Shown piece by piece: positions 9,459 through 52,811 of a stretch of 64,000 bases of DNA (its first letter is position 1; each line of letters starts with the position of its first letter). The translations under genes were made by a program, and so were the position numbers. This stretch comes from an uncultured Clostridia bacterium (lineage in GTDB: Bacteria > Bacillota > Clostridia > Christensenellales > UBA1242): the NCBI GenBank assembly GCA_944381825.1, contig CALWMK010000002.1, positions 34,660 through 98,659 of the forward strand, given 5' to 3'. Under the pieces are notes generated by a model. It was given only the letters and a program-made list of their open reading frames with translations. It did no database searches and was not told the origin of the DNA.

Positions 9459-9951
9459 TTTTACGCTCCTTTGCTTTTATGATTGAAACCATTATAAGGC
9501 TCAAAATAAATGCAATAAATCCTCCTTGCACAATCCAAAAAATTGCCAGAGAAAAATTATTTTTTATCAATATTAATATTATCACCTCTAAAAGCGACAA
9601 TGCAAATAAATTAAAGTGAATATTTTGACGAAAAATAAAAAAAACTACCAAACATGCACAAGAGAAAGCTAAAAAATAGTAGGAAATGAGATTTTCAAAT
9701 AAAACAAAAGAGTGTACTATACCAATAAATGACATAAAATAAAGCGAAACTCCTAAAAACATTGAAGAATCCAAATTAAAAAAAACACTTTTTGTAATAA
9801 GAATTGCACCTAAAAAATTTAATGCAATAGAAAACCAAGCCTTATGCAAATTAAAAGGTTTAATTAATCCCCAAATTATAAATATAATATAAGCTATTAT
9901 TAAAATTGTACAAATTATTCTAAGGGCAATTGTTCTTTTGATTTTTTCCAT
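9442..9951 (-). CDS. Hypothetical polytopic membrane protein
   Basis: 169 aa, almost entirely hydrophobic helices. Overlaps lgt upstream and the DivIVA-domain gene downstream, suggesting translational coupling. Confidence 0.65.
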   Translation of the reverse strand: MEKIKRTIALRIICTILIIAYIIFIIWGLIKPFNLHKAWFSIALNFLGAILITKSVFFNLDSSMFLGVSLYFMSFIGIVHSFVLFENLISYYFLAFSCACLVVFFIFRQNIHFNLFALSLLEVIILILIKNNFSLAIFWIVQGGFIAFILSLIMVSIIKAKERKSAVSK

Positions 9952-24075: not shown

Positions 24076-24419
24076 ATGCCTCCATGTAATTAATTTAATA
24101 ATATCAATCTCTATTACTAAAATTTCTAATTTTAAGCTTTTTAGATAAATTTAAAAAGAAACATTTACATTTTTATAATAGCACAAAAACCTAAAAACAA
24201 CAAACAAACATAGGCTTTAATATATAAAATACTTTAGCTTGTTATTAAAAGATGAAATAACACAAATTATTAATCTATTTACTTGACAAAATAAACAAGT
24301 TAATGTAAACTATTAAAGTTATAAAAGTTTAATTTACTATAATCAAAGCAATTAACTTTTTGTAATATTTTTAACGAAACACTCCTAAATTTTGCTTAAA
24401 CTGATAAAATTATAAATAT

Positions 24420-24495
24420 GGGCTGTTAGCTCAGTTGGTAGAGCAACTGACTCTTAATCAGTGGGTCCGGGGTTCGAGTCCCCGACAGCCCACCA
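24420..24495 (+). tRNA. tRNA-Lys (anticodon CUU), CCA encoded
   Basis: Hand-folded cloverleaf: GGGCTGT/ta/GCTC-agttggta-GAGC/a/ACTGA-CTCTTAA-TCAGT/gggtc/CGGGG-ttcgagt-CCCCG/ACAGCCC/a/cca. All stems pair, 76 nt. Confidence 0.95.
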
Positions 24496-24591
24496 CGCGT
24501 TAGTCCCTTATAAAATAAGGGATTTTTTAATGTCAAGATATTAAAAAAACAACTCAAAACTGTCTAAAATTTTCGTAAAAAGTGTCTAAAA
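24451..24591 (+). repeat. Left 141-bp direct repeat (attL-like): tRNA-Lys anticodon loop to 3' end plus 96 nt
   Basis: Aligns to 28762-28902 with 4 mismatches and no indels (hand alignment). Confidence 0.9.
24504..24528 (+). terminator. Intrinsic terminator after tRNA-Lys
   Basis: TCCCTTAT-aaa-ATAAGGGA hairpin followed by TTTTTT. Confidence 0.8.
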
Positions 24592-24703
24592 AATGTCATT
24601 TTTGCATGTAAAATTTTAATATTTCACATTGCATAAAAACATCGAATTTTACTTAAAAATTGCCACTGTCTAAAAAACTGTCTAAAATTTTTAGAAAAAT
24701 AGC

Positions 24704-24740
24704 ACAAAAAAAGACTGAGAATTATCATAAATTCTCAGTC
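24704..24740 (-). terminator. Intrinsic terminator behind the integrase remnant
   Basis: Perfect 11-bp stem GACTGAGAATT/AATTCTCAGTC (24713-24740), followed on the minus strand by a T-run. A near-identical copy is at 29100-29127. Confidence 0.8.
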
Positions 24741-24747
24741 AATTTTA

Positions 24748-25197
24748 TTACATTTCAAAATCTTTTTGTTTTTTCTTTTTACGCATTTCTTTTTCTTTTA
24801 GCCACTCTTTATATTCTTCATCTTCTTGTTGAGATTTTAATTGTTCTTCTAACTTTGCAATTTTTTCTTCAAGTCCTTTTGTCTTATCAATTTCGTTTGT
24901 TTTTTCCTTTTCTTCTTTCTTTGAATTAAAATTAAAAACATTTGAAATTGTTATTGCCGAATTTTGCTTTGTTTTATAATCCAAGTGGCTGTAAATATTC
25001 GCTGTGGTGCCAAAATCGGTGTGTCCAAGCCATTATTGAATTTGTTTCATAGGAACTCCGTTAGATGGCATAATGCTCGTGCAAGAGTGCCTTAAATCGT
25101 GAAATCTTATCTTTCTTAAATTGTTTCTTCGTAAAATTTTGATAAAATTTTTTGTTAACCTGTTAGGGAGTATCAATCTTCCAAGATTATAAATTTT
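24748..25197 (-). pseudogene. Tyrosine recombinase/phage-type integrase, C-terminal fragment with an in-frame stop
   Basis: My translation: ..NRLTKNFIKILRRNNLRKIRFHDLRHSCTSIMPSNGVPMKQIQ*WLGHTDFGTTANIYSHLDYKTK.. It has the HxxR box and the catalytic Tyr region. A TAA sits at 25033-25035. The N-terminal ~2/3 is missing (frame closed above 25197). Confidence 0.85.
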
Positions 25198-25253
25198 TTA
25201 AACTCAATGCACTTTAAAATAGCCATTCAATTGTCAAAGTTAAATTTCGTTTT

Positions 25254-25283
25254 TCTTAAAAAACCACCTCAACTAGGTGGTTT
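25254..25283 (-). terminator. Intrinsic terminator of the island cargo operon
   Basis: The minus strand reads AAACCACCTagttgAGGTGGTTTTTTAAG. Confidence 0.8.
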
Positions 25284-25298
25284 CTAAACTTCCTGTTT

Positions 25299-26324
25299 TT
25301 AGTTGATTTTAAATTCAACTGAATAACTCATTGTATCGCTTGAAAAAGCTACTCTATGCCCAACAAAATTTCCAACGCTGTCAAATATATAATATGCCTC
25401 ACCATATTCGAAAGTTATCTTGATTTTCATATAGTCGCTGTCAATACTTTCAAAAAGACCAATATCAGAAGAAGTCAACATGTTGTTTATAATATCTATT
25501 CGCAAAGCTTGTAAAATTAGTGAAGTCATATCTTCGTTAAAAATATATTCAAGTTTATCTGTTCCTTGGCTTATTGTAATTTTAGTTTTATTAGTGGCAC
25601 CTGATGTTGTGTCAGTGTCAATCGTCCCGCTTATGGTGTAATTATAACCGCCATTAATCAAATCACTTAACTCTGTATTTGTTGTAAAGATTTGTAAAGA
25701 ATCGTCTCCATATTTATTTTCAACAGTTCCTTGTATCTTATAATCGCCAGTTGCGTCGCTGTAATCAATTTTAATCGCTCCATTATATCCTGCAATAGCC
25801 GTTTCTGCCATATCTGCTCCCATCCATGCTGTCATAGCCTGAGTGGCCTGAGTAGGATTTGCTGGTTGCCCGTCTTTTGTTGTTTCAATTTTAACAAAAT
25901 CTCCAGATGTGTCTAACAAAGATGACGTCTGTGAAATATTGTAATTTATTTGTAATATTTCTGAAACCCCTGTCGATTGTGTTTCACCCTGACGAACAAG
26001 CAAAACTAAACACTTGCTGTTTACTAATGAATAGCCACCAAAACCATCGTCTACGTAGCTGTTTAAATCCCAAATTTTGCAATCCGCTACATTTGTGTTT
26101 ACAGCATACCCAATCTGTTTAAGTGAAGTCCACACCCTAGGAGAAACGGTAGGAAAATAATTTTCAGCAGAGTCAACATTGCCAATTTCTTTTGAAACAT
26201 AATTTGTTCCTTCAATAGGTGTTTCGTTTACTAATGTTGGATTAAAATCAACAAGCTTAAACTCCAAATTCAAAGCATCTAGTTCAGTCTTGTCTTGTTC
26301 GGTTAAATCTTCAAATTTAATCAA
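25299..26324 (-). CDS. C-terminal part of a split surface lipoprotein (frame is open up to 26624)
   Basis: 341-aa ORF in the track. The same frame stays open 100 codons further upstream, with no start codon, into the overlap with ORF 26576-26992. Confidence 0.7.
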   Translation of the reverse strand: MIKFEDLTEQDKTELDALNLEFKLVDFNPTLVNETPIEGTNYVSKEIGNVDSAENYFPTVSPRVWTSLKQIGYAVNTNVADCKIWDLNSYVDDGFGGYSLVNSKCLVLLVRQGETQSTGVSEILQINYNISQTSSLLDTSGDFVKIETTKDGQPANPTQATQAMTAWMGADMAETAIAGYNGAIKIDYSDATGDYKIQGTVENKYGDDSLQIFTTNTELSDLINGGYNYTISGTIDTDTTSGATNKTKITISQGTDKLEYIFNEDMTSLILQALRIDIINNMLTSSDIGLFESIDSDYMKIKITFEYGEAYYIFDSVGNFVGHRVAFSSDTMSYSVEFKIN

Positions 26325-26575
26325 GGTTTTGTCAAACCAACCATCATCTCTGGCACTTGTTTGATACCTTCCAATCTTTAATCTCGCACCGTCGACATAA
26401 AAAGTAAACTCACTGCTCTCACCAGACGAAGTAGCTATACTATCCGGAGTTGTGTCTACAAATGAATCAAAGCTATCTATTATGTTTGATGAGACATTTT
26501 TTAATGTAAATGGACCAACATTTTTCCCTTCACTAGCCTTGTAAGTGTCCGATTCTGGAATTCTAACAGAAATAT

Positions 26576-26992
26576 TTACGGTCTGCCCAACTGCAAAACT
26601 GTCGTCGCCCCCAAATATGACATTTTAAAACCATCACTAGAATAGTCATAATACATGATTTGATAAATCGCTTTATTATATTGATCGTAAAAATCAGTGA
26701 TGTATTCACCCCGAGCCCACTCACTACCATTTATTGAAAATTCTAGTGAAGAAGACGTGATGCCCTCGTCACTCGCCACTTCATAGCCTTCATGATAAAA
26801 ATTTTCAATTTCCATTAACACAGAACCTTGATAATCTTGTAAAATGTTTACAACCTCAACATTGTTCGTTCTGTCCAACTTTTCAGGTTCTGATTTTCCT
26901 CCACAAGCAGTAACCAAAAATGCAGTTGAAATAATTACCAATGATGCAAGCAAAAGTCCAGCCGTTTTACTTTTAAAAAAGTTTCTTTTCAT
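26576..26992 (-). CDS. N-terminal part of the split lipoprotein (signal peptide plus lipobox)
   Basis: The MKRNFFKSKTAGLLLASLVIISTAFLVTAC lipobox is followed by GGKSE. It joins the downstream frame by a 1-nt shift, most plausibly at C5 26608-26612. Confidence 0.7.
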   Translation of the reverse strand: MKRNFFKSKTAGLLLASLVIISTAFLVTACGGKSEPEKLDRTNNVEVVNILQDYQGSVLMEIENFYHEGYEVASDEGITSSSLEFSINGSEWARGEYITDFYDQYNKAIYQIMYYDYSSDGFKMSYLGATTVLQLGRP

Positions 26993-27057
26993 TTTTTTTC
27001 CTTATATTTATATTTCGCAAAGTTAAAGAAATTATGTCATTTTATTAAACTATTTTT

Positions 27058-27576
27058 TTAAATTCTAAAAATTTCCAATTTGGTTCGTTTGTCGCAAATG
27101 TTGTCTATAGCAATAACGAGAGCAATTAAGAAAGGCATGTCTTGTTCATTCGCTTCAAGTTCAAAGGCATCATTGATAAAGGTGATTTGTCTTCTTATTG
27201 TACCAATAACTTCACCATTTTTTAGAATTTGAGTTGTTAAACCAAAAAATTTTCCTTGAATTTTAATTTCATCTTTATAACCCATTACAAAATATTCTTG
27301 ATTTACATTAAACCATTTGTCTTTCACTGTGGCGATCTTATGTTTATTTGAATCATAGATATACGCTTTATGAATAAACCAATTAAACCATCTATTCCTA
27401 ATCTTAAAAAGTCTATTCCCTTCTAAGTCGCAAACGTATTTTACCCTTGTTATACTAAAAATGCGACCCTTAACCTCAAAGACAGGCTCTTTGTTTTCAT
27501 TTACAACCGATGAACCTCCACCAATAGACCAAAATTTATTCTTTATATATACTTTCATAAATCCATCCCTAACCAA
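27058..27576 (-). CDS. LURP-one-related / Tubby C-terminal-like protein (DUF567, YxjI-like)
   Basis: 172 aa. It has a repeated beta-strand pattern and a C-terminal ...FELEANEQDMPFLIALVIAIDNICDK helix, resembling B. subtilis YxjI-type proteins. This rests on my recollection, not a search. Confidence 0.55.
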   Translation of the reverse strand: MVRDGFMKVYIKNKFWSIGGGSSVVNENKEPVFEVKGRIFSITRVKYVCDLEGNRLFKIRNRWFNWFIHKAYIYDSNKHKIATVKDKWFNVNQEYFVMGYKDEIKIQGKFFGLTTQILKNGEVIGTIRRQITFINDAFELEANEQDMPFLIALVIAIDNICDKRTKLEIFRI

Positions 27577-28078
27577 TTTGATTTGTAATTAGCCGACCTA
27601 ATAAAATAGCAATTCCTACCCAAGCCAAAATTCTGGCTATGAACAGTATTATCCATCTTCTTTTAGCTATTTTATCAACTGTATATTCATTTTTTATTTC
27701 TTCAAAACTTGTTTCCGTTTCTACTTCAACAGCTCTGCCACTTGAAGATAAGGAATTAAATTTTATATTAATATTATTTACATCTTTTAATTTAACTATA
27801 AAAGAACAATCCATTGAAATACATTTTCTATCATAAGGTGGGTTAAAAATTCCAAAAACACTTACTATAAATGATAATATTGCATATAACCACCAGAGTT
27901 TAGATTTCAACTCTAACTCTCTTGAAAAAGCTATTTTAATTTCATCTTTTTCTGTTTGAAAATCTGTTTCGTAAGAGCCAAATTCGTTTTTCTTACATTT
28001 TACATATTGGTCATCAATAAAAATATTAGGAATAAATTTTGAATTGACTCCAACCAATTTTAATTTCACCGAATTCAT
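27569..28078 (-). CDS. Hypothetical membrane protein (2 TM, 169 aa)
   Basis: TM helices at about aa 62-80 and 141-163. Overlaps both neighbours (8 nt and 4 nt). Confidence 0.65.
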   Translation of the reverse strand: MNSVKLKLVGVNSKFIPNIFIDDQYVKCKKNEFGSYETDFQTEKDEIKIAFSRELELKSKLWWLYAILSFIVSVFGIFNPPYDRKCISMDCSFIVKLKDVNNINIKFNSLSSSGRAVEVETETSFEEIKNEYTVDKIAKRRWIILFIARILAWVGIAILLGRLITNQIG

Positions 28079-28527
28079 TTTATCACCTCCATTGCAACAA
28101 CTATTATAGCAATAATCACAATTGCAATTACAATAGAAGATATAACTATTCTACCTATATGTTTTGTTCTCTTATCTAAAAGCAGAAGCACAAGTGAAAG
28201 GATTGCTCCTATAATAGCAATAGAGGCAAATATATAAAAATTTTCTAAAAAGAAAGCAGAAATCTTTAAAGATACTTTAGATGTTGACATTAATATATCA
28301 AAATAATTGGGAACAAAGACAAATATGGTCCCAATAGATAAAATAATGACAACAAAACCTATAAGCAAAATAAAAGCAGTCGCAACAAAAGATAGAATTC
28401 CGCTAAAACACAATAATAGAGCTAATATTGAAATGTTAGAAAAAATCTTACCTAACCTAATTAAAAATTCTTTTAAGTCATTTCTAAGAAGTTGGGTGGT
28501 ATGTGAATTTTGCATATCATCCTCCAT
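28075..28527 (-). CDS. Hypothetical polytopic membrane protein (about 4 TM, 146-150 aa)
   Basis: First gene of the island operon. An alternative start at 28515 lies 4 nt after GGAGGA. Confidence 0.65.
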   Translation of the reverse strand: MEDDMQNSHTTQLLRNDLKEFLIRLGKIFSNISILALLLCFSGILSFVATAFILLIGFVVIILSIGTIFVFVPNYFDILMSTSKVSLKISAFFLENFYIFASIAIIGAILSLVLLLLDKRTKHIGRIVISSIVIAIVIIAIIVVAMEVIK

Positions 28528-28538
28528 ATGTTAACATT

Positions 28539-28567
28539 ACTTTATAATATTATATCAAAAAAGTCAA
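28539..28567 (-). promoter_or_regulatory. Candidate promoter of the island cargo operon
   Basis: Minus strand: TTGACT (28567-28562), then TATAAA at 15 nt or TAAAGT at 17 nt. Confidence 0.4.
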
Positions 28568-28761
28568 ACAAATAAGAGTATAAAACACTATTAATATATT
28601 GTTTTTATAAATGTCTAAAAGAAAACTGCAAAAACTGAAATAATTTTAGACAAATTTATAAGTTAAGGGATAAACTTGAATAACACGATTTTGGTAGAGA
28701 AAATAAGGGGTTAAAGGGGATTTACTGGAATAAAAAGACATAAAAGAAGTTCCAAAGGCAC

Positions 28762-28902
28762 CTCTTAATCAGTGGGTCCGGGGTTCGAGTCCCCGACAGC
28801 CCACCACGCGATAGTCCCTTATAAAATAAGGGATTTTTTAATGTCAAGATATTAAAAAATTAACTCAAAACCGTCTAAAATTTTCGTAAAAAGTGTCTAA
28901 AA
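28762..28902 (+). repeat. Right 141-bp direct repeat (attR-like) containing a displaced tRNA-Lys 3' fragment (28762-28806)
   Basis: Identical to tRNA positions 32-76, followed by the same terminator hairpin. There is no matching 5' acceptor or D arm upstream. Confidence 0.9.
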
Positions 28903-29090
28903 TTTCAATATTTTTAACAAAAATAATTATCGTTTTGCAAACTAATTTTTCACTCAAAAACAGCCTAAAATTGCCACTGTCTAAAAAATTGTCTAAAAAT
29001 AAGCGAGTAAGAAAATGAAAATTTTGTTTTTTACATTTGCTTACGAACGCCATTTTCATCAACAAAAATTATTTAATTTTAGAAAAACAG

Positions 29091-29127
29091 CAAAAAAAAG
29101 ACTGAGAATTATCATAAATTCACAGTC
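29091..29127 (-). terminator. Intrinsic terminator behind the ASCH pseudogene (copy of the 24713-24740 hairpin)
   Basis: GACTGAGAATT-atcata-AATTCACAGTC has one stem mismatch. A T-run follows on the minus strand. Confidence 0.7.
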
Positions 29128-29134
29128 GATTTTT

Positions 29135-29514
29135 TCATTTTACAATCAGCCAACCAGCACCATTGCTTCGTTTGACTTTAATTGGTGCAACATTTTTTAC
29201 ACCACTAAGCCATATAAGAGTGCAAATTTTTATGGTGTTGTTTCCCAATCTACAAATTTATCAGTTCCAATTTGCTTACCATAACATAGCCGTATTTCTT
29301 CAACAATTTCGGGTGTAAGTTCATAATATTTTACATCTTTAACAATAGCAATAGCAGTCACATCTTTGCCGGTTTCTTTCAGTAGAATTTTATCCCCGAT
29401 ACTTACTTTTCCATAAGGCGCAACTTTATTCATGCTCCATCTGCTTTCAATAGTCTTTTTACCAGAAAGCACCATGTCAAAAAATGGTTGCCTTAAAATT
29501 GCCATATGTTGCAT
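29135..29514 (-). pseudogene. ASCH-domain protein, disrupted by an in-frame stop plus a frameshift
   Basis: The 94-aa ORF ends ...DWETTP*. The frame continues KFALL, then a -1 shift gives IWLSGVKNVAPIKVKRSNGAGWLIVK*, which looks like the natural C-terminus. Confidence 0.65.
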
Positions 29515-52458: not shown

Positions 52459-52811
52459 TGGTGGAAACGGTGGGATTTGAACCCACGTCCGAATAGGCTG
52501 AATTTTGCCTTTCTCCGTGTGCAGTTTATGTTTTAGTTTCATTCAAGTTTCTTCCATAAACAAAATAAACTTGAACAAGCCACAATTTTAAATTTCAAAA
52601 ATTAGTGACAAATTTTTGAAATTTCCTATTATCATTTGATGCCAAATAAATTTTTAATAGGAAAAAAATTTATTGACAAGTTGCATTAGGCTGCAACAGC
52701 GCCGTAATTGTTATTTGCGTTTATTTTTTGACCAAGTTTTTAGGTAGGCTCAGCCATCTACCACACGCTTTATACAAAATCTAGTCCCAATCGTCGAAAC
52801 CTATCGTCCCC
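52459..52811 (-). ncRNA. ssrA: tmRNA (SsrA)
   Basis: The minus strand starts GGGGACGATAGGTTTCGACG and ends GGACGTGGGTTCAAATCCCACCGTTTCCACCA. The acceptor stem pairs with a G3-U. Internal tag frame: GCA AAT AAC AAT TAC GGC GCT GTT GCA GCC TAA (ANNNYGAVAA*). It lies immediately after smpB. Confidence 0.93.

Follow-up and report, generated by a model that had tools for sequence, protein, structure and literature searches.

A decayed integrative island in a tRNA-Lys(CUU) gene of an uncultured Clostridia bacterium and the putative trace of a tandem partner

Introduction

Cis-mobilizable elements (CIMEs) are decayed elements derived from integrative and conjugative elements (ICEs) or integrative mobilizable elements (IMEs) that have kept both attachment sites, attL and attR. 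They were described first for the ICESt1-related elements of Streptococcus thermophilus, and also for the tRNA-Lys elements of S. agalactiae (PMC5704250). A pathway of decay and accretion has been set out for streptococcal ICEs, IMEs and CIMEs, including elements residing in tRNA-Lys CTT genes (PMC5704250; PMC5357655). Among the tRNA gene (tDNA) islands collected in Islander, those with an anticodon-centred attP form the commonest class (2083/3919) and tandems are frequent (PMC4383910). Here we describe a region of this kind in a 64-kb stretch (the window) of contig CALWMK010000002.1, from the assembly GCA_944381825.1 of an uncultured Clostridia bacterium. We consider it, with a probability of roughly 85%, to be a decayed, CIME-like member of an IME family, integrated in tRNA-Lys(CUU) and lying beside the relic of a second element that had integrated in tandem.

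The island resembles CIMEs in being flanked by att sites, in having an integrase gene (int) that is truncated and carries a nonsense codon, in lacking xis and transfer genes, and in lying beside the trace of a second element. It differs from those described in its host, a low-GC, Clostridia-like gut bacterium, in an integrase lineage with a charged C-terminal tail of ~75 aa, and in a partner reduced to ~330 nt, its mobilisation being putative. With the tRNA-Lys(CTT) IMEs of S. agalactiae (IME_Sag2603_tRNAlys; PMC5704250, PMC5357655) it shares the type of target gene and an integrase of the tyrosine family; both are small, have adaptive cargo that varies, and often stand in tandem with decayed elements. 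The intact relatives here, however, come from metagenomes of other Firmicutes, and the crossover lies in the anticodon loop, the identity segment being 45 nt long. Like Islander islands (PMC4383910), it combines a tRNA regenerated at the int end with a displaced 3′ fragment of like orientation; a partial PF00589 match lies within it, and the crossover falls in the anticodon loop. However, its integrase is a fragment, and an Islander tandem needs an integrase and a tRNA fragment for each member, of which the second relic has neither.

Results and discussion

An island bounded by a tRNA-Lys gene and its displaced 3′ half

ARAGORN called a single tRNA in the region, a tRNA-Lys with the anticodon CTT at position 34, and the Rfam tRNA model matched at 24420-24492 (Table 1). 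A repeat search found that a 141-nt direct repeat (24451-24591 and 28762-28902, spacing 4311) starts within this gene, at tRNA position 32, where the 7-nt anticodon loop (CTCTTAA) begins; its copies align without gaps and are identical at 137/141 positions (97%). The tRNA-half cores of the two copies (24451-24495 and 28762-28806) are identical at 45/45 positions on the same strand, and the window contains exactly two occurrences of the 3′-terminal 25 nt of the tRNA, where shuffles predict 0. At the right copy ARAGORN called no tRNA and Rfam gave merely an 18-nt T-arm-like match below threshold, which rules out a complete second tRNA there. The region thus reads, from left to right: tRNA 5′ half; core, P′ arm, terminator, int relic, cargo and P arm; core, second P′ arm and terminator; then an ASCH-domain gene and hisS. 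An original prediction, made by a model from the letters alone, had proposed an intact 76-nt tRNA-Lys(CUU) at 24420-24495, a 141-bp repeat with 137/141 identities and no indels starting at the anticodon loop, and a second copy that is a displaced tRNA 3′ fragment lacking its 5′ half. All three hold.

Two loci, L021 and L022 (96.4% mutual identity), to which the int relic led as a query, give the limits of the island. Both carry a homologous island in tRNA-Lys(CUU) in a different chromosomal context, with genes for MetRS and a Zn-ribbon protein beyond the tRNA and for DegV at the opposite end. Identity to the window is 93-94% over 27097-28806 and 71-81% over 24416-25188. Homology ends at 24416-24418, the 5′ end of the tRNA, and at 28806, where the displaced half ends; the boundaries of the island are therefore fixed, in agreement with the site-specific integration that had been predicted. 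Moreover, the direct repeat in L021 and L022 is only 45-53 nt long and consists of the tRNA 3′ half. The arm between tRNA and int therefore belongs to the element and not to the chromosomal target, and the true att identity would be the ~45-nt tRNA 3′ half.

Table 1. Features of the island and of the adjoining arm relic (positions in the window).
Feature	Position	Strand	Basis or content
Intact tRNA-Lys(CUU)	24420-24495	+	ARAGORN; Rfam 74.3 bits
Chromosomal 5′ part of tRNA	24420-24450
Element-supplied 3′ part of tRNA, from anticodon loop (attL core)	24451-24495
Left 141-nt repeat copy	24451-24591	+	tRNA 3′ half, tRNA terminator hairpin (24502-24524), first two TGTCTAAAA motifs
Integrase-proximal P′ arm	24496-24747	+	TGTCTAAAA at 24561, 24583, 24667, 24679; colinear with L061, L062
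P′ arm, variable middle block (64 nt)	24592-24655
int terminator hairpin	24713-24740	minus-strand reading	terminator scan
Tyrosine-integrase relic, last 145 of ~449 residues	24748-25197	-	PF00589; identity to L061 Int
341-aa cargo ORF	25299-26324	-	in higher-G+C (34-35%) part of island
138-aa cargo ORF, lipoprotein-like (signal peptide + Cys)	26576-26992	-	translation
Three-gene cargo module, overlapping stop/start codons	27058-28527	-
172-aa LOR/Tubby-C-like protein	27058-27576	-	PF04525, E=2.6e-11
169-aa protein	27569-28078	-
150-aa membrane protein, multiple transmembrane segments	28075-28527	-
Distal P arm	28540-28761	+	TGTCTAAAA at 28612 (+), 28644 (-); alignment with L021, L022, L062
Displaced tRNA-Lys 3′ half (attR core), without 5′ half	28762-28806	+
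Solo second P′ arm copy, no int behind (putative relic of a tandem element)	28807-29135	+
tRNA terminator copy in second P′ arm	28813-28835		terminator scan
Arm motifs of second P′ arm	28872 (variant), 28894, 28978, 28990
Second P′ arm, middle block of L021 allelic type	28903-28966
int terminator copy in second P′ arm	29100-29127

The integrase is a truncated pseudogene

The open reading frame (ORF) next to the left arm matches PF00589 with E=5.5e-13 (49.5 bits, cut-off 27.1), at profile positions 109-170 of 172 only. In a blastp alignment it shares 89.7% identity with residues 305-449 of the intact 449-aa integrase encoded at locus L061. The H-x-x-R motif (HDLRH), the His (GH) and the Tyr are kept, with an in-frame stop among them. 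Arg-I, the beta-hairpin Lys and both N-terminal domains, including the SAM-like core-binding domain, are absent: in L061, L062 and P0015 the region with Arg-I (..RRSEV..) and the beta-hairpin Lys precedes the point at which the relic begins, and upstream of 25197 the frame has many stops. The in-frame stop is a TAA at 25033-25035 on the minus strand, following a Gln codon (25036-25038) and preceding a Trp codon (25030-25032), where relatives carry GAA (Glu). Measured against the R-K-H-R-H/W-Y set and the core-binding domain of active tyrosine recombinases, the relic should not be functional. The original prediction had recognised a recombinase C-terminal fragment with this TAA, in the translation as written, had put the missing part at the N-terminal two thirds, and had proposed PF00589 as the check; these points were borne out.

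As the first protein search gave only matches of 253 aa or less, a family of naturally short integrases was considered. It was rejected because full-length versions of 449-453 aa exist, and the short matches were an artefact of pseudogenes and short contigs. The full-length relatives were found by scanning metagenomes with the longest relics, aligned, as the query. Relative to the intact L061 gene, nonsynonymous divergence (dN) is 0.114 for the window copy and 0.005 for that of L021. The dN/dS ratio of the relic (NG86) is low, at 0.07-0.15, with few synonymous sites that are near saturation; this ratio says little, because most of the divergence is older than the truncation and because of that saturation. 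With regard to selection on the relic, only the excess dN of the window copy was used as evidence. Breakpoints also differ between hosts: the L021 and L022 relics break at Arg-I, and that of a further locus, L024, has an internal deletion and keeps the SAM-like domain. Together with the differing dN, these breakpoints indicate that decay was independent in each host. To the right of position 9922, L024 and another assembly, L025, match at 100% identity; to the left of it they are unrelated. Position 9922 falls inside the related int relic, which lies beside GAPDH with no tRNA nearby and marks a strain-specific breakpoint or the boundary of a variable region.

Intact relatives point to an IME ancestor

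The L061 Int has a charged C-terminal tail that is nearly identical to that of the window (…EDEEYIEWLKEKEMRKKKKQKDFEM), and two further loci, L062 and L063, encode Ints of 453 aa; the charged tail is shared by the 449-aa and 453-aa relatives. All three adjoin tRNA-Lys(CUU) with the same geometry as in the window, and more distant tailed integrases (L064-L066) adjoin tRNA-Arg(UCG). The intact Int has ~76 residues ahead of its SAM-like domain. In both L061 and L062 an excisionase-like ORF with an HTH_17 domain overlaps the int start, and in L061 a MobL-family relaxase (PF18555, E=1.2e-28) lies just upstream. The L062 element is ~8.2 kb long, carries Zur and ZnuABC as cargo and ends in a degenerate displaced tRNA 3′ half. 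Because intact relatives have Xis and Int and, in L061, a MobL relaxase, the ancestor appears to have been a small IME and not a prophage. These relatives, with Xis, Int, MobL and a length of ~8.2 kb (L062), also uphold the prediction that the region is the remnant of a once larger element.

That prediction had spoken of an island or prophage, and of the two the island stands. A prophage remnant would fit an integrase of the Pfam 'Phage integrase' family, and integration at the anticodon loop is typical of temperate phages as well (PMC4383910). However, no cargo ORF matches any PHROG family, the closest intact relative has MobL and Xis, and L062 has Zur/ZnuABC and no phage genes. Viral contigs scanned with the int alignment gave distant, partial matches of 29-56% identity, of which those above 40% span only 43-66 residues, and a phage DNA search matched the tRNA and short stretches only. 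We therefore regard a prophage origin as extremely improbable.

A truncated tRNA-Lys 5′ part was seen 60-73 nt upstream of the complete tRNA-Lys(CUU) at three loci (L027:9609-9768, L061:3232-3305 and L062:11165-11240). In L061 and L062 this fragment and its spacer (..TCATACGCTCCG.AATGAGTATAAACTA..) are homologous though the host tRNAs differ, and L061 has a third, more degenerate copy. No such fragment is present in the window. Islander holds 159 islands with 5′ tDNA fragments (PMC4383910).

Candidate arm sites and a second integrase-proximal arm

The motif TGTCTAAAA occurs 10 times in the window against 2.2 expected, and 9/10 occurrences lie within the arms: four between tRNA and int, two (one of them inverted) inside the far end of the island and three in the right copy. 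When the P′ arms were aligned, four motif positions were conserved in all, occupied by TGTCTAA(A/T)AA in most and by TGCCTAATAAA in L022. The distal arm contains a conserved ATAACACGA..AAAATAAGGG block and ends at the junction of CAC with CTCTTAATCA; it is conserved with respect to the intact L062, including one TGTCTAAAA site and that junction. In a lambda-type attP, core-type sites are flanked by arm-type Int sites. The motif likewise flanks the core here, with four int-proximal and two distal copies at positions conserved in intact relatives, which makes it a candidate arm-type Int binding site.

Homology between the two ends of the island extends past the 141-nt repeat, which the original prediction had not noted. 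Beyond it lies a divergent 64-nt block (24592-24655 and 28903-28966), after which homology resumes, first over 24656-24687 (28967-28998) and later over 24688-24745 (29076-29132). The last segment takes in a G+C-rich hairpin with, on the minus strand, a run of T behind it; in the left copy the hairpin serves as the int relic's terminator. The divergent block is of the L061 type in the left copy and of the L021 type in the right. We infer that 28807-29135, an arm of another allelic type, is what is left of a second element integrated in tandem. Such an origin would follow from the layout of 28540-29135, a P arm, a core and a P′ arm as expected between tandem elements, and from a second P′ arm that is of the other allelic type and ends at an int terminator without an int. 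It would also explain why the repeat measures 141 nt instead of ~45 nt, since 28807-29135 is then a second integrase-proximal arm.

Alternatively, the right copy could have arisen when the arm of the island itself was duplicated locally or underwent gene conversion, or attP and attB could simply share an unusually long identity. Over their first 141 nt the copies are 97% identical, and arm copies do recombine: within the species the left block is polymorphic, being of the L061 type in the window, L002 and L006 and L021-like in L001, L012 and L147. This polymorphism indicates that arm blocks are exchanged by recombination. However, the window combines an L021-type right block with an L061-type left block, and its right block differs from the L021-like left block found in the other group of strains. 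Moreover, the chromosomal side of attR in L021 and L022 has no arm, the repeat there being 45-53 nt, which assigns the arm to the element, and the right copy ends with an int terminator copy exactly where an int stop codon is expected. Duplication or conversion is accordingly very unlikely, and a tandem relic is the preferred explanation.

Two further observations concern these arms. Only the right arm copy (window and L147) has a 77-nt insertion (28999-29075), which contains a partial inverted repeat, GCGAGTAAG..CTTACGAACGC. In L022, the int-proximal arm (L022:10646-10761) has a different repeated motif, CATTTTATTAGGCA, and has TGCCTAATAAA at the conserved positions; the C-terminal tail of its int differs too, and identity to L021 is 96% elsewhere in the locus, so that arm and int tail may have been replaced as a module.

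The insertion site is occupied by another element in a sister species

A scan of genome contigs yielded a single sister species, L027, an uncultured Clostridia metagenome-assembled genome (MAG). Its glycosyltransferase is 84% identical, its flank shows ~80% DNA identity, and synteny continues up to the tRNA. The ancestral tRNA 5′ half is identical to that of the window at 39/39 positions and is cut after CTCTTAAT. Downstream lie a complete tRNA-Lys(CUU) of different sequence, an unrelated full-length 336-aa integrase and more than 9 kb of other genes. Since L027 has another element at the same anticodon-loop site, the genes of the window's island are not conserved core; the prediction would have failed had all relatives shared them as such. 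This site in tRNA-Lys(CUU) is thus an integration hotspot in this lineage, used by at least two unrelated integrases.

The L027 element (L027:1-9450) encodes, besides the integrase (PHROG 1, E=2.6e-48), two helix-turn-helix regulators and proteins of 713 aa, 527 aa (leucine-rich repeat) and 281 aa (P-loop). The ORFs scanned against PHROGs, those of 713 aa, 281 aa and 98 aa, had no match. The far end of the element lies beyond the fetched locus.

The relic is fixed among conspecific contigs

Exact-protein look-ups of the flanking MGDG-synthase-like glycosyltransferase and of HisRS gave 30 conspecific contigs, from other metagenomes and from one MAG (GCA_964323845.1). The whole island is spanned by L001, L012 and L147 at ~98.7% identity and is entered from one side in L002, L006, L013-L016 and L148. 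None of the 30 contigs skips the island or shows an empty site. The same TAA is present in all conspecific copies, and the same int truncation point in those reaching the relic start; L147 and L148 have an additional frameshift in the int tail. The relic is thus fixed in the species as far as sampled and is still decaying.

Species at ~80% HisRS identity show no synteny around hisS and gave no empty site. The comparison with an empty site that had been proposed alongside the original prediction therefore yielded none in conspecifics, and in L027 the site holds a different element. Six Logan contigs that end at 24451-24455, inside the tRNA, were first read as repeat breaks. They were judged uninformative, as such ends could equally be breaks at a tRNA-Lys sequence common to different genomes in a mixed sample.

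Decay, accretion and present mobility

The following course of events would account for the region. A tyrosine integrase of ~450 aa would have recombined an IME with the anticodon loop of tRNA-Lys(CUU), the element bringing in 24451-24747, with a new tRNA 3′ half, a terminator and an integrase-proximal arm, and pushing the old 3′ half to its far end (28762-28806). A deletion would then have removed the relaxase, the excisionase and the first two thirds of int, and the remnant of int would have gained its nonsense codon by a GAA-to-TAA change, leaving ~4.3 kb of att-flanked cargo in the CIME state. Two related elements would have integrated in tandem, one of them being later deleted down to an arm and an int terminator. 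Either could have arrived first, because an incoming element could use attL or attR.

As to its class, the island retains attL and attR, with identical cores and with arms colinear with those of L061 and L062, and has lost the genes for integration, excision and transfer (a truncated int with a TAA, no Xis or relaxase). Structurally it answers to the definition of a CIME, cis-mobilisation itself being putative. An IME has a functional integrase of its own, for which the island has only a truncated, nonsense-bearing int and no xis, and a relaxase or oriT; no relaxase domain was found in the island ORFs, MobL being present only in L061. The element is an IME derivative, not an IME. In the terms of Islander, the tRNA (24420-24495) is paired with a same-orientation displaced fragment (28762-28806), and the PF00589 match exceeds the gathering score, though it is that of a pseudogene fragment covering the end of the profile only. 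As to the marks of a prophage remnant, the cargo gave no PHROG match, phage records matched only at the tRNA and in short stretches, and the int matches in viral contigs were distant.

Several points weigh against this explanation. A genome with two full elements, which would show a tandem history directly, was not found among the fetched loci, and the polymorphism of the left block means that arm blocks can be swapped by recombination with no new integration. The only complete intact relative, L062, has no recognisable relaxase and the L061 contig ends inside the element, so that a single locus supports the IME label. No mobility-related gene in the cargo ties the island to an IME. Lastly, no assembly contains an empty site or an excision junction, so that mobility in this species can only be supposed for the past.

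The island is presumably immobile at present. It could, however, be a CIME that is still mobilisable, which a co-resident or incoming IME of the family could excise and move, either in trans, by means of its Int and Xis, or in cis once the two have become joined by tandem accretion. The cores remain fully identical, the arm motifs are preserved on both sides, and 28540-29135 has the full P arm, core and P′ arm layout of an attP-like or attI site. In addition, the cargo module (93-94%) is more similar between hosts than int (71-81%), which suggests recent exchange, and cis-mobilisation of such tandems is documented in streptococcal elements (PMC5704250). Against this, the 64-kb window holds no intact integrase of the family, the conspecific assemblies show neither an empty site nor a variant location, and breakpoints that differ by host fit independent decay after separate integrations, not the transfer of a dead element. 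We consider continued mobilisation unlikely. A bolder version, in which helper elements of the family still traffic the relic between species and the three-gene module is selected and spreading, is quite unlikely; if true, the module would be a selected, horizontally spreading function, fixed in this species while the tRNA-Lys genes and flanks of its hosts differ.

Taken as a decayed IME derivative, the island is an ordinary CIME-like relic of a common, well-understood kind of genomic island. Positions 24451-28806, with the relic up to 29135, can be marked as horizontally acquired DNA in an uncultured gut Firmicute. The locus documents a family of small IMEs in tRNA-Lys, mostly seen as relics, whose integrase is tailed and whose arms hold candidate sites, and it offers a clean example of decay and accretion in a clade other than the streptococci. 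Its significance beyond annotation is slight, and the module that includes the LOR protein is the only part possibly worth more work.

Cargo and neighbouring genes

Sequence searches of Pfam, PHROGs, NCBIfam, PADLOC and PDB gave LOR/Tubby-C-like as the only indication of cargo function; the 341-aa ORF had no family match in any of them. A Pfam scan of the island ORFs found neither an HTH_17 Xis nor a relaxase. The 169-aa protein had PADLOC matches to PDC-M37A (E=3e-4) and BrxA (E=4.5e-3), which are weak and were not trusted. The three-gene module is also present in the relatives (L021:7325-8767; L022:7437-8879), at 93-94% nucleotide identity to the window, and by blastp its proteins are 88-96% identical to their L021 and L022 counterparts. 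The 138-aa ORF is 41% identical (blastp) to the N-terminus of a 316-aa ORF at the equivalent position in L021.

To the right of the arm relic and downstream of hisS lies the ASCH-domain ORF (29136-29514, minus strand). It encodes 94 aa matching PF04266 at positions 3-66 of 103, and past its stop the frame runs on for ~27 further codons, interrupted by another stop, as far as the relic terminator, so that the ORF may be a pseudogene. Its length is polymorphic, with 94-aa or 81-aa calls in conspecific contigs. Further along, the window contains a tmRNA gene (52459-52811, minus strand) with the tag peptide ANNNYGAVAA; tmRNA genes, too, are common targets of islands.

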